Origin: a virus
Taxonomy: Duplodnaviria > Heunggongvirae > Uroviricota > Caudoviricetes
Length of the DNA: 6,296 nt
Direction: 5' to 3' (one strand)
Virus record (IMG/VR): IMGVR_UViG_2663762839_000014
Position numbers and translations under genes: made by a program. Shown piece after piece: positions 2,291-6,296 of this stretch. How positions within the stretch are numbered: position 1 is the first letter of the stretch; each line of letters begins with the position of its first letter. The notes beneath the pieces were generated by a model, which ran no database searches, was not told the origin of the DNA, and saw nothing but the letters and a program-made list of their open reading frames with translations.

Positions 2291-3868
2291 ATGACGGAAA
2301 ACATTCATAAGCATCGCATCCTCATTCTGGACTTCGGTTCTCAGTACACTCAACTGGTTGCGCGCCGCGTGCGTGAGCTGGGTGTTTACTGCGAACTGTG
2401 GGCGTGGGATGTGACAGAAGCACAAATTCGTGACTTCAATCCAAGCGGCATTATTCTTTCCGGCGGCCCGGAAAGTACTACTGAAGAAAACAGCCCGCGT
2501 GCGCCGCAGTATGTCTTTGAAGCAGGCGTACCGGTATTCGGCGTTTGCTATGGCATGCAGACCATGGCAATGCAGTTGGGCGGTCACGTTGAAGCCTCTA
2601 ACGAACGTGAATTTGGCTACGCGCAGGTTGAAGTCGTAAACGACAGCGCACTGGTTCGCGGTATCGAAGATGCGCTGACCGCAGACGGTAAACCGCTGCT
2701 CGATGTCTGGATGAGCCACGGCGATAAAGTTACCGCTATCCCGTCCGACTTCATCACCGTAGCCAGCACCGAAAGCTGCCCGTTTGCCATTATGGCTAAC
2801 GAAGAAAAACGCTTCTATGGCGTACAGTTCCACCCGGAAGTGACTCACACCCGCCAGGGTATGCGCATGCTGGAGCGTTTTGTGCGTGATATCTGCCAGT
2901 GTGAAGCCCTGTGGACGCCAGCGAAAATTATCGACGATGCTGTAGCTCGCATCCGCGAGCAGGTAGGCGACGATAAAGTCATCCTCGGCCTCTCTGGTGG
3001 TGTGGATTCCTCCGTAACCGCAATGCTGCTGCACCGCGCTATCGGTAAAAACCTGACTTGCGTATTCGTCGACAACGGCCTGCTGCGTCTCAACGAAGCA
3101 GAGCAGGTTCTGGATATGTTTGGCGATCACTTTGGTCTGAACATTGTTCACGTTCCGGCAGAAGATCGCTTCCTGTCAGCGCTGGCTGGCGAAAACGATC
3201 CGGAAGCAAAACGTAAAATCATCGGTCGCGTTTTCGTTGAAGTATTCGATGAAGAAGCGCTGAAACTGGAAGACGTGAAGTGGCTGGCACAGGGCACCAT
3301 CTACCCTGACGTTATCGAATCTGCGGCGTCTGCAACCGGTAAAGCACACGTCATCAAATCTCACCACAACGTGGGCGGCCTGCCGAAAGAGATGAAGATG
3401 GGCCTGGTTGAACCGCTGAAAGAGCTGTTCAAAGACGAAGTGCGTAAGATTGGTCTGGAGCTGGGCCTGCCATACGACATGCTCTACCGTCACCCGTTCC
3501 CGGGACCGGGCCTCGGCGTTCGTGTACTGGGCGAAGTGAAGAAAGAGTACTGTGACCTGCTGCGCCGTGCTGATGCCATCTTCATTGAAGAGCTGCGTAA
3601 AGCGGATCTGTACGACAAAGTCAGCCAGGCGTTCACTGTCTTCCTGCCGGTACGTTCTGTTGGCGTAATGGGCGATGGTCGTAAATACGACTGGGTTGTC
3701 TCTCTGCGTGCTGTCGAAACCATCGACTTCATGACCGCACACTGGGCGCACCTGCCGTACGATTTCCTCGGTCGCGTTTCCAACCGCATTATCAATGAAG
3801 TGAACGGTATTTCCCGCGTGGTGTATGACATCAGCGGCAAGCCGCCAGCTACCATTGAGTGGGAATGA
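2291..3868 (+). CDS. guaA: GMP synthase, glutamine-hydrolysing (525 aa)
   Basis: ORF 2291..3868 translates to [41 protein letters not shown]..., ending ...[10 protein letters not shown], matching E. coli GuaA. It contains the glutamine amidotransferase region (GVCYGMQ) and the ATP pyrophosphatase P-loop SGGVDSS. Confidence 0.97.
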
Positions 3869-3916
3869 TTAACAGCTAACTCATAGCAAATCATTCCTAT
3901 TCAGATGCCAACTCAA

Positions 3917-3947
3917 CCCTCTGTTTTTGCAGGGGGTTTTTGTTTTT
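3917..3947 (+). terminator. Rho-independent terminator of the guaBA operon
   Basis: CCCTCTG-tttttg-CAGGGGG forms a 7-bp stem with one G-U pair (3917..3936), followed immediately by TTTTTGTTTTT (3937..3947), about 50 bp after the guaA stop. Confidence 0.75.
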
Positions 3948-4003
3948 ATGTATTCATTTCTATTCACTCTATACCATATTTTTCGGCGGTACAGGTGACG
4001 GTA

Positions 4004-4018
4004 TTACCTTAAAGGTAT
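4004..4018 (+). promoter_or_regulatory. Dyad motif copy a: TTACC-ttAAA-GGTAt, upstream of the integrase stub
   Basis: One of three same-orientation copies of TTACC-nnAAA-GGTA(A); the others are at 4960..4974 and 5340..5354. It lies about 45 bp upstream of the integrase GTG start and overlaps a TATACT -10-like hexamer at 4016..4021. Confidence 0.4.
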
Positions 4019-4060
4019 ACTCTCATGCCGTCATGAAAATGGTTTCTATACGGGTGAATT

Positions 4061-4210
4061 GTGCTTACCGATACAAAATTAAAAAACCTCAAGCCGCAGG
4101 ACAAACTGTACAAAGTCTCCGATCGTGACGGGCTGTATGTGGCTGTGCTTACGTCAGGTACGGTCTCGTTTCGCTATGACTACCGTATCAACGGTCGCCG
4201 CGAAACACTG
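4061..4210 (+). pseudogene. Tyrosine recombinase (P4-family integrase) N-terminal stub, about 50 codons
   Basis: From the GTG at 4061 the translation is LTDTKLKNLKPQDKLYKVSDRDGLYVAVLTSGTVSFRYDYRINGRRETL, the conserved N-terminal arm-binding region of P4-like integrases. After about codon 50 the frame continues as unrelated sequence to a stop at 4276, and no catalytic domain is present in any frame. Confidence 0.7.
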
Positions 4211-4690
4211 GTAGCCGGGCTTCAGCGGGGCACTGTAGGTTTTGTTCTCTATCTTCATTGCCTGCATCACTGCTGACGCCGTGGCGTTGGCTACTTGGTC
4301 GGCAACCATCTTTATGCGTTCTTCCTGCGGGAGCGAGTTTTTAATGTAACTTCCGGTGCGGCGGATCTGAGGAAGAACCTCACCTGTAACCCATTTACGA
4401 AAGCGGTAGGGGATAGTGCCTGGTGTTACTGCATCGCGGCAGCGGAGGATCAGTGTGTAGAGGCCTGACTCGGAGATGATGATCGATTCTTGCTCACCGC
4501 CAGGGGTGTCGGTTGAAGCGACGCCCTTCTCATCATCATCAAGTTTTCGAACAGTATCTCGATGGTTTGCTATGCCTATAGCCCGACAAACATCTGAAGC
4601 GATAAACCATGGCTCACCATTAATGACGATTACTCGTATATCGGCTTGGGATTCGAAAGAAAAAATGGACGTGCTTTTTGTAGCTGTCAT
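4154..4690 (-). CDS. Bro-N domain protein (phage antirepressor-like), 178 aa; C-terminal ~19 codons read antisense through the integrase stub
   Basis: Residues about 10-115 (FSFESQADIRVIVINGEPWFIASDVCRAIGIANHRDTVRKLDDDEKG...IISESGLYTLILRCRDAV...FRKWVTGEVLPQIRRTGSY) match the Bro-N signature. RBS AAGG lies 8 nt upstream of the ATG at 4690. Confidence 0.75.
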   Translation of the reverse strand: MTATKSTSIFSFESQADIRVIVINGEPWFIASDVCRAIGIANHRDTVRKLDDDEKGVASTDTPGGEQESIIISESGLYTLILRCRDAVTPGTIPYRFRKWVTGEVLPQIRRTGSYIKNSLPQEERIKMVADQVANATASAVMQAMKIENKTYSAPLKPGYQCFAATVDTVVIAKRDRT

Positions 4691-4723
4691 AGTGGTTACC
4701 TTTTAGTCTGGTTAATCACCACT

Positions 4724-4739
4724 ACCGACGCCAATCGGT
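4724..4739 (-). other. Stem-loop ACCGA-cgccaa-TCGGT (plus-strand reading), sharing its loop with the hairpin at 4887..4904
   Basis: 5-bp perfect stem with a 6-nt loop. The 10-mer GACGCCAATC (4727..4736) is repeated exactly at 4891..4900. Lies in the presumed leader of the Bro-N gene. Confidence 0.3.
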
Positions 4740-4847
4740 TGGTGGTGAACTGCGCAGGGTTGGCGTAACCGGCTAAAAGGACCCGGCGCACCTTTCGGTG
4801 CCCCCACACAGCCCACCATAATACGAATGTGACCGTGCTATACGCAT

Positions 4848-4867
4848 AAAAAAACCGCTTGCGCGGT
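4848..4867 (-). terminator. Rho-independent terminator on the minus strand
   Basis: On the minus strand, ACCGC-gcaa-GCGGU (5-bp stem, GNRA-type loop; plus 4854..4867) is followed by seven U (plus A-run 4848..4854). Positioned to terminate transcripts coming from the 85-codon ORF or the candidate small RNA. Confidence 0.6.
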
Positions 4868-4886
4868 GAATGCGCCTTTTAGTAAT

Positions 4887-4904
4887 CCGGGACGCCAATC
4901 CCGG
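4887..4904 (-). other. Stem-loop CCGGGA-cgccaa-TCCCGG (plus-strand reading), sharing its loop with the hairpin at 4724..4739
   Basis: 6-bp perfect stem with the identical CGCCAA loop. Lies inside the candidate small RNA. Confidence 0.3.
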
Positions 4905-4959
4905 CACTGGCAAAATCCAGTGCCCGATTACTATGGCACAAGAGGAGTGCGATGTAAAT

Positions 4960-4974
4960 TTACCGCAAAGGTAA
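4960..4974 (+). promoter_or_regulatory. Dyad motif copy b: TTACC-gcAAA-GGTAA, overlapping the -10/+1 of the putative minus-strand promoter
   Basis: Perfect 7-bp arms with flanks (ATTTACC / GGTAAAT, 4958..4976). Same core and orientation as the copies at 4004 and 5340. Confidence 0.4.
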
Positions 4975-5002
4975 ATATAAGCACTCCACTTGGTAATTGC
5001 AA
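4974..5002 (-). promoter_or_regulatory. Putative sigma70 promoter on the minus strand (TTGCAA - 17 bp - TATATT)
   Basis: -35 at 5002..4997 and -10 at 4979..4974 with a 17-bp spacer, starting directly after the stop codon of the 85-codon ORF. Hexamer match only; a chance occurrence in AT-rich DNA is possible. Confidence 0.3.
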
Positions 5003-5005
5003 ACC

Positions 5006-5263
5006 TTATATGGTTTGTTTTCGTAATTGTTCGGCACAATAGTCGAGATGTGTTTGCAGATCCTGCATAGACATCTGTGAGCTGGTGACGTAGTTAATCA
5101 GTGCAGTCAGTTCGGCAAGTGGGCCATCGACATTAAATCCATCCTTATCGAGATCCCGGAGTAATTTCATCAAGTGCGATCCCTCCACCAGTGACCTGAC
5201 GCCTCCCGGCGTGTGAATCCTTTCGGTAAATCCGTCTTCCAGTGGATAGTGATACTGCTGCAT
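5006..5263 (-). CDS. Hypothetical 85-aa acidic protein, predicted SOS (LexA)-regulated
   Basis: ORF with ATG at 5263, SD GGAG 8 nt upstream (plus 5272..5275), and a near-consensus LexA box 20-40 bp upstream of the ATG. No family recognised from the sequence MQQYHYPLEDGFTERIHTPGG... Coding status is inferred from the RBS and box context only. Confidence 0.5.
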   Translation of the reverse strand: MQQYHYPLEDGFTERIHTPGGVRSLVEGSHLMKLLRDLDKDGFNVDGPLAELTALINYVTSSQMSMQDLQTHLDYCAEQLRKQTI

Positions 5264-5282
5264 CTTATCTTCTCCATGTAAT

Positions 5283-5302
5283 AACTGTATATTTATACAG
5301 TA
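5283..5302. promoter_or_regulatory. LexA (SOS) box AACTGTATATTTATACAGTA
   Basis: CTGT-N8-ACAG with an A/T-rich spacer; 18 of 20 positions match the E. coli consensus TACTGTATATATATACAGTA. It lies in the divergent region between the 85-codon ORF (minus) and the tailspike gene (plus), and overlaps a TATAAA -10-like hexamer in the minus orientation. Confidence 0.75.
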
Positions 5303-5303
5303 T

Positions 5304-5318
5304 CAAACAATTTGTTTG
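5304..5318. promoter_or_regulatory. 15-bp palindrome CAAACAA-t-TTGTTTG adjacent to the LexA box
   Basis: Perfect 7-bp inverted arms around a single central base, immediately next to the SOS box and over the expected -35/spacer region of the minus-strand promoter. Candidate operator for a dimeric regulator. Confidence 0.3.
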
Positions 5319-5339
5319 CTATCCAGCACGTTTTGCGAA

Positions 5340-5354
5340 TTACCTGAAAGGTAA
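5340..5354 (+). promoter_or_regulatory. Dyad motif copy c: TTACC-tgAAA-GGTAA, in the divergent regulatory region
   Basis: Perfect 6-bp arms with flanks (ATTACC / GGTAAT, 5339..5355). Same core and orientation as the copies at 4004 and 4960. Confidence 0.4.
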
Positions 5355-5458
5355 TGTCTATTCGTGTTCACAGTATTTCTATACATATATGGTTTTTAGG
5401 GTAATAGAATAACCAGATGTGCGGCGCAACGGGTGCTGCGACTATCTGGAGATTTAAC

Positions 5459-6296
5459 ATGACGGTCTCAACCGAAATTGACCACAACGAATACACCGGT
5501 AACGGTGTTACAACGATATACCCTTATACCTTTAGGATTTTCCAGAAATCTGATTTAGTAGTGCAGGTTGTTGACCTGAACGAGAACATCACAGAGCTGA
5601 TTCTTGACACTGATTACATAGTTACTGGGCTGGAGGATACAATGGTGGCAATATAATTCTGTCGAAGGCATTGGTTAGCGGTTATCAGATTTCTATATCA
5701 CGAGAGCTTCCGGTTACGCAGGAAACTGATTTGCGTAATCAGGGTAAGTTCTTTGCAGAAGTGCATGAGGATGCTTTTGATAAGCTAACGATGCTGATCC
5801 AGCAGGTTCGAAGTTGGTTTAGCTTGGCGCTGCGCAAGCCGTCAAGTATTGCTAACTGGTACGATGCACTAAATAATTACATCCGTAATCTGAGAGACCC
5901 TAGAGAACCTCAAGATGCAGCCACGAAAAATTATGTTGATACTCTGGCTGTTGGAAATTTCATTCGAACATTACGTGTACCTGAACCTGTCAGGCAGTTC
6001 CCTGATGCAGCAATACGCGCCAACAAGATTCCTGCCTTCGACAGTTCCGGCAATCCGATTGTGGTTTTGCCTCCATCTGGTTCTGCTTCTGACATTATGA
6101 TAGAACTTGCTAAACCAACAGGTGCTGACCATATTGGTACATCATCAGGTGAAACTGTGCAGCATGTAATCGACCGACTTTATCTTCCAAATGATCCCCG
6201 TGGTTATGGCGCACTAACAGAGTCAACAGATAATACCCAAGCGTTCATTCAGGCGATTTATGCTTCACCTAGTGGAATTGTCATAAGGGGAGGTAT
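5459..6296 (+). pseudogene. Phage tailspike / tail-fibre protein, 5' part, interrupted by a -1 frameshift in a G-run at 5627..5629; continues beyond the window
   Basis: From ATG 5459 (SD GGAG 8 nt upstream) the frame reads MTVSTEIDHNEYTGNGVTTIYPYTFRIF...DYIVTG and stops at 5654. The adjacent frame is open from 5614 to the window end (over 225 codons: AGGYNGGNIILSKALVSGYQISISRELPVTQETDLRNQGKFF...). The two frames join if GGG at 5627..5629 was originally GGGG. The last part (PRGYGALTESTDNTQAFIQAI) resembles the start of a pectate-lyase-fold depolymerase domain. Could be a true pseudogene or a homopolymer sequencing error. Confidence 0.7.

Follow-up and report, generated by a model that had tools for sequence, protein, structure and literature searches.

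A probable LexA-controlled ant gene of the SPC32H type, orphaned in a phiV10-like prophage remnant at guaA

The stretch of DNA analysed here (the window) is the entire 6,296-bp contig CDRI01000453.1 of assembly GCA_000946855.1. It holds a short minus-strand open reading frame (ORF) preceded by a palindrome that resembles a LexA (SOS) box, within what appeared to be the remains of a prophage. The locus raises the question of what the small protein is, whether the palindrome is the operator that controls it, and what such a gene can do in an element from which much of the phage is missing.

Identity of the 85-residue product

The ORF (5006..5263 on the minus strand, including the stop codon) is read without interruption from an ATG at 5263 down to 5006 and encodes 85 amino acids; a Shine-Dalgarno sequence, GGAG at 5272-5275, lies 8 nt before the start codon. 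The product is both small and acidic, as first described, with 12 Asp/Glu residues versus 7 Lys/Arg. A tblastn search of phage genomes located the protein in 35 records, all of them epsilon15-like podoviruses (Uetakevirus) or near relatives. Residues 1-84 are 100% identical to the copies in E. coli phages EC.W1-9, vB_EcoP_ZX5 and TL-2011b, and identity to the phiV10 copy is 97.6% by the same method. The orthologues in phiV10 (PhiV10p24), epsilon15 (gp19) and TL-2011b, which carry the label "hypothetical protein", range from 84 to 100% identity to the window protein and have the identical local gene order.

The function of the family is indicated by two further relatives. Over 98% of the ORF (residues 2-84), the product is 88% identical to proteins of Salmonella phages SPC32H and SPC32N that GenBank describes as "ant: anti-repressor protein". 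A phmmer search of PDB sequences returned one match, again to residues 2-84, which is the 86-residue chain E of entry 5D50 ("Anti-repressor protein", E = 4.1e-47), the SPC32H Ant whose crystals also contain the repressor that it targets. The initial view that the product belongs to no recognisable family is refuted by this resemblance to a crystallised protein. The profile search that had been proposed for the 85-residue product placed it in phrog_450 with an E value of 2e-47. This PHROG is labelled "unknown function", and no Pfam or NCBIfam model covers Ant, which explains why the ORF looks unrecognised both to a reader of the sequence and to RefSeq. Pfam matches of the ORF to DUF724 and AbiEi_1 were dismissed as sub-threshold noise.

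Other properties of the gene agree with the assignment by homology. Its length of 85 residues compares with 85-86 residues in nine phage copies and is within one residue of SPC32H Ant. It lies where the virion gene cluster ends and is oriented divergently from the tailspike or tail-fibre gene, an arrangement found also in SPC32H, phiV10, epsilon15, Tyrion, BUCT554 and Klebsiella phages. Pairwise Nei-Gojobori estimates across ten phage copies give dN/dS values of 0.04-0.19, with dS near or at saturation between genera, indicating that ant is a genuine coding sequence on which purifying selection is strong; the concern that the ORF might not be conserved as a coding sequence is thereby answered. 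Taking together full-length homology, size, purifying selection, map position and a LexA box placed as in SPC32H, the last judged at the sequence level, the ORF belongs to the SPC32H-type Ant family by all the features that can be judged from sequence, and it is referred to below as ant, a gene of the SPC32H/epsilon15 antirepressor type.

The first-pass annotation held a LexA-controlled small antirepressor, tying induction to DNA damage, to be the leading idea, and considered an SOS-induced toxin, a host-takeover factor or an anti-defence protein equally possible. The leading idea is supported by the homology to SPC32H Ant. The other roles are now much less likely than an antirepressor and can be regarded as very improbable: they would suit a small, acidic product that is SOS-controlled as far as its box indicates, that has no Pfam or NCBIfam family and that RefSeq labels "hypothetical protein", but they do not account for 88% identity to an annotated antirepressor crystallised with its repressor target, for a fixed epsilon15-like map position shared with the characterised gene, or for the presence of the Ant domain at the C-terminus of Bro-N antirepressors, described below.

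The SPC32H Ant system was reportedly solved structurally by Kim et al. in 2016 (PNAS 113:E2480; PDB 5D50), and Kim & Ryu (2013, J Virol 87:11775) reportedly found its target, the repressor Rep, to be refractory to RecA-mediated cleavage. Passages of PMC7380047 describe Ant as being made after SOS induction and LexA self-cleavage and as blocking the lytic repressor by protein-protein interaction. An excerpt of PMC9638917 has an Ant tetramer binding two Rep dimers and breaking the Rep tetramer, and a passage of PMC9986798 equates the domain of Rep that contacts Ant with its tetramerisation domain. In an intact phage of this kind, LexA bound to the box overlapping the ant promoter would silence ant. 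DNA damage would activate RecA, LexA would then cleave itself, and Ant would be made; Ant would bind the RecA-uncleavable Rep and split its DNA-binding tetramer into dimers, and with the tetramer taken apart the lytic genes would be turned on. For the window allele, which differs from SPC32H Ant by 10 substitutions, or 12% of residues, we infer from the homologue that LexA binds the box, that the SOS response induces ant and that Ant binds Rep. The system of LexA box, Ant and Rep is already known, so the guess made from the sequence was correct but is not new.

The antirepressors Tum of phage 186 and GfoA/GfhA of Gifsy-1 and Gifsy-3 work along similar lines, in that a LexA-repressed small protein directly binds and inactivates a RecA-uncleavable repressor, according to passages of PMC7380047 and PMC3121763. 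PHROG and Pfam scans of Ant returned none of the Tum or GfoA/GfhA families, and since no sequence relationship surfaced, Ant is best described as a functional analogue from another family. SPC32H Ant was also reportedly described by Kim & Ryu 2013 as structurally distinct from Tum and from the Gifsy antirepressors.

The LexA box and its surroundings

The palindrome upstream of ant lies at 5283..5302 and is assigned to the minus strand; it reads AACTGTATATTTATACAGTA, or TACTGTATAAATATACAGTT on the ant strand, and agrees with the LexA consensus TACTGTATATATATACAGTA at 18 of 20 positions, leaving two mismatches. No other site in the whole window comes within three mismatches of the consensus, and such sites appeared in none of 200 dinucleotide-preserving shuffles. 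The core pattern CTGT-N8-ACAG is present once in the window, at this box, versus an expectation of 0.07. A heterology index (HI) was calculated from a matrix of 21 E. coli LexA operators based on Lewis 1994 and Fernandez de Henestrosa 2000, and all values are approximate. On this approximate scale the box has an HI of 1.81 and outperforms all 21 of the sites from which the matrix was built (umuDC, 2.29; dinD, 2.52; recA, 5.29), whereas the runner-up among the 20-mers of the window has an HI of 16.1. The description of a near-consensus LexA box is thus borne out by the match count, by the shuffles and by the HI scoring that had been recommended, as is its location close upstream of a minus-strand ORF with a good Shine-Dalgarno sequence, the end of the box being 19 nt from the ant ATG.

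A candidate ant promoter can be read from the sequence at 5277..5305 on the minus strand, with TTGATA at 5305-5300 and TATTAC at 5282-5277 separated by a 17-nt spacer that the LexA box occupies. The motif TTGnTA is nearly invariant in an alignment of the regions upstream of ten ant copies, namely those of the window, TL-2011b, phiV10, SPC32H, epsilon15, Tyrion, BUCT554 and three Klebsiella phages. The -10 hexamer TATTAC is weak and unconserved, and a scan for sigma-70 consensus promoters called none at the LexA box; for these reasons the assignment of the hexamers is provisional.

In the same alignment, a LexA box stands at the equivalent position before the Shine-Dalgarno sequence and ATG of every ant copy. 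Its ACAG arm is unchanged throughout, and its CTGT arm is retained in all seven copies from Escherichia, Salmonella and Enterobacter phages and is replaced by ATGT in the three Klebsiella phages (approximate HI 8-9). By its position in the alignment the window box is the homologue of the LexA site of SPC32H ant. Phages SPC32H and SPC32N differ at two positions in the 3.2 kb around ant, and one of these changes ACAG to AAAG in the right arm of the box, lifting the approximate HI of the SPC32H-type box from 3.65 to 8.09. Kim & Ryu 2013 reportedly found the two phages to be two nucleotides apart, one of the changes lying in the LexA site that overlaps the ant promoter and making Ant constitutive. 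The location of the SPC32H/SPC32N difference inside the box fits that account.

The intergenic region is shared with the divergent tail-fibre gene and holds another conserved palindrome, and it can be asked whether the box instead regulates the tail-fibre gene or is an operator of the phage repressor, its resemblance to a LexA site being incidental. This explanation has a negligible probability in our judgement. The distance from the box to the ant start codon is 19 nt, compared with 157 nt to the tail-fibre ATG; the HI of the box is better than those of the E. coli operators that built the approximate matrix, and the SPC32H/SPC32N change falls exactly in the conserved CAG. Moreover, the palindrome of the phage repressor type differs in sequence, having the form TTACC-N5-GGTAA.

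Three copies of TTACC-N5-GGTAA are found in the window versus 0.09 expected, one of them with one mismatch (4004-4018), and SPC32H has 18 copies where 0.52 would be expected, grouped to either side of rep. One window copy, at 5340..5354, is the conserved palindrome between ant and the tail-fibre gene; it is preserved in the alignment of ant upstream regions, and the epsilon15 record annotates the homologous palindrome upstream of ant as a "repressor" protein_bind feature. A second, TTACCGCAAAGGTAA at 4960..4974, lies just upstream of an isrK-like promoter considered below, and the third, imperfect site, TTACCTTAAAGGTAT at 4004-4018, is located upstream of int and has exactly the sequence of the site that precedes int in SPC32H. 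The motif is most likely the Rep operator, judging from its sequence and distribution, and the copy at 5340..5354, as a candidate Rep operator, suggests that the region between ant and the tail-fibre gene is a further site of Rep action in intact lysogens.

A deletion derivative of a phiV10-like prophage

The left 4 kb of the window consist of xseA-guaB-guaA and match every complete E. coli genome, the best at 98.9%. The attL-side sequence begins at 3854, and from here the window is collinear with phiV10 in two blocks. Positions 3854-4220 correspond to phiV10 26720-27086 (95.9% identity, blastn) and comprise attP-side sequence and the first 160 nt of int. Positions 4210-6101 correspond to phiV10 19750-21639 (88.8%, blastn) and comprise most of a Bro-N gene, intergenic RNAs, ant and the N-terminal part of the tail-fibre gene. 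The sequence identifies the element as a phiV10-like prophage inserted at the attachment site of guaA. A P22-like element, considered in view of a tailspike gene beside an immI-like region, was dropped since all phage matches are to epsilon15-like Uetakevirus members and the window is collinear with phiV10. An intact-looking relative occupies the equivalent chromosomal site in E. coli CE10.

The two blocks overlap by 11 bp at 4210..4220, which marks a deletion junction. In prophage order, the arrangement corresponds to one internal deletion of ~31.8 kb from int codon ~53 to Bro-N codon ~161, and the junction joins these two points, with int in antisense, to create a chimeric ORF of 178 amino acids. 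The remaining int fragment (4061..4220, plus strand, approximately the first 53 codons) matches Pfam Arm-DNA-bind_3 with an E value of 1.5e-10; an origin from an unrelated P4-type integrase was rejected because the fragment, 95.9% identical to phiV10 int and attP-side sequence, is the phage's own int. On the far side, the tail-fibre or tailspike gene (5459..6296, plus strand; PHROG tail families, E ~1e-31) is represented by its N-terminal part and runs off the contig, which ends inside it. Alignment and three-frame translation reveal a 1-nt deletion near 5628 relative to phiV10p25 that shifts the reading frame, with the later frame open to the contig end; this lesion may be a sequencing error of the draft assembly. 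The earlier description of the element as a prophage remnant is confirmed by the large deletion and the frameshift relative to phiV10. Whereas phiV10, TL-2011b and epsilon15 are complete phages, the window represents a deletion derivative in which the Bro-N and int genes are truncated and the tail-fibre gene is frameshifted.

The deletion takes rep (PhiV10p40), the replication genes, the terminase and nearly all virion genes. A cognate rep is consequently missing from the element, the region equivalent to PhiV10p40 lying inside the deletion, and in this respect the window prophage differs from SPC32H. It also differs in carrying an E. coli allele of the phiV10/TL-2011b type and in the module downstream of ant. 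We conclude with high confidence that the ORF is the ant gene of epsilon15-like (Uetakevirus) temperate phages, that the palindrome is its LexA operator, and that the pair has been orphaned in a rep-less phiV10-like prophage. The window ant is most likely still SOS-inducible but would lack a target of its own. Since rep is deleted and Ant is an orphan, any present effect would have to be exerted in trans, through the Rep of a different epsilon15-like phage in the same cell.

Retention of ant in this element was initially taken to suggest a retained function. A stronger form of this idea is that the orphan gene has been domesticated as a trans-acting factor, which, once SOS-induced, would disable Rep made by incoming phages or by further epsilon15-like prophages in the same cell and would alter induction or lysogenisation to the benefit of the host or of the remnant. 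The ORF, its Shine-Dalgarno sequence and its LexA box show no damage, whereas the phage genes on either side are both disrupted, and trans-acting antirepressor crosstalk, of the kind shown by the Gifsy antirepressors, is documented in Salmonella in passages of PMC3121763 and PMC7380047. In addition, the 305-nt segment containing ant and the box (5006-5310) was detected in ~10% of complete E. coli genomes (529 of 5426), nearly all at ≥95% identity, so that compatible Rep targets should be common. Nevertheless, the ant ORFs of the window and TL-2011b differ by 3 nt, and one deletion and one frameshift suffice to explain the state of the element. With two lesions and this closeness to TL-2011b there has been no time for decay, and intactness is expected by default; the argument from survival in a decayed element is thus unsupported. 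The exact deletion junction was found in none of the 5426 complete E. coli genomes, and a protein search with the chimeric 178-residue ORF detected it in two contigs only, possibly from one sample, so there is no sign of a lineage that keeps it. A domesticated role is accordingly considered unlikely, and an ant gene stranded by a deletion is the reading adopted here.

The isrK-C4-Bro-N module downstream of ant

Three elements follow ant on the minus strand. The first is an isrK-like small RNA at 4848..4923 (Rfam RF01394, 60.0 bits versus a gathering threshold of 50, E = 2.4e-11) with an intrinsic terminator at its end, a terminator-like hairpin being located at 4867-4854 and followed by a T run; a promoter-like sequence, TTTACA-17-CATAGT, extends from 4958 to 4930. 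A match to RF03163 (C4 target a1/b1) at 4936-4884 overlaps this small RNA and, at 27.9 bits, is below the gathering threshold. The second element is a C4-type antisense RNA of the P1/P7 immI type at 4738..4823 (RF01695, 75.7 bits versus a gathering threshold of 45, E = 5.5e-14). The third is a Bro-N antirepressor gene at 4154..4690 (Pfam Bro-N, E = 6e-21; phrog_130, "anti-repressor Ant", E = 9e-56), which is truncated at its 3' end by the deletion. As far as residue ~161 its product shares 98% identity with PhiV10p23, and the remainder is unrelated; the gene is phage-derived down to 4210, and its final ~18 codons come from the antisense of the int fragment.

The pair of isrK and C4 RNAs also follows ant in phiV10, TL-2011b, Tyrion, ST512-KPC3phi13.3 and Kp4865-1, and phiV10 and TL-2011b share the module including Bro-N with the window. 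The pair had no match after ant in SPC32H, epsilon15, BUCT554 or BUCT711, and SPC32H has no isrK-C4-Bro-N module there. Presence in some relatives and absence from others indicate that the module is an optional accessory. A terminator scan of the interval from the ant stop codon to isrK revealed no intrinsic terminator, and transcripts started under LexA control may therefore extend into the module.

The order of isrK-like small RNA with terminator, C4-type RNA and antirepressor-like Bro-N gene matches that of isrK-orf45-anrP in Gifsy-1. There, the short IsrK acts in trans on a read-through transcript to switch on its translation into an antirepressor-like protein, and a processed RNA, STnc1160, occurs at the position equivalent to the window C4 (PMC4825925). 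The window module differs from the Gifsy-1 locus and the P1/P7 immI (c4-icd-ant) operon by its location directly downstream of a gene predicted to be LexA-controlled, by the lack of an icd homologue and by the truncation of the Bro-N gene.

Two short minus-strand ORFs overlap the C4 region, one of 35 amino acids starting with ATG (4819->4712) and one of 37 starting with GTG (4809->4696), and both stop a short distance before the Bro-N gene begins. In Gifsy-1, orf45 is translationally coupled to anrP, and it is possible that the two short ORFs are its counterparts.

Sequence comparison connects the product of ant with that of the Bro-N gene. Residues 2-79 of the window Ant align with residues 153-230 of Tyrion gp20 at 38% identity over 78 amino acids (E = 2e-19), Tyrion's own Ant matches gp20 with an E value of 1e-21, and phrog_1760 ("anti-repressor") aligns with Ant through its C-terminus. 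By these alignments, full-length Bro-N antirepressors carry the Ant fold again as their C-terminal domain. PhiV10p23 (phiV10 19646-20230) retains the first ~31 residues of the Ant domain and no more, and in the window copy the deletion cuts inside the Ant domain. A speculative and rather doubtful extension is that the phiV10-type tandem of a LexA-controlled free Ant and a Bro-N-Ant protein gated by isrK and C4 forms a two-input induction switch, the LexA half of which would be orphaned here and able to act in trans. Such a switch, if real, would combine DNA damage, sensed via LexA, with a physiological signal, sensed by a small RNA, that acts on a second Rep-binding protein.

The window adds little new biology in itself, because the system was described in 2013 and its structure in 2016, and what the broken prophage carries here is a near-identical allele. 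Its practical value is in annotation. Among the matches listed from complete E. coli genomes, ant is labelled "hypothetical protein" in all; together with the missing Pfam and NCBIfam models, these labels mean that an experimentally defined member of the SOS regulon goes unnamed in ~10% of E. coli genomes. The finding points to an annotation gap for a prophage-induction switch, and to a possible tandem of two antirepressors that carry an Ant domain and are placed under different controls.
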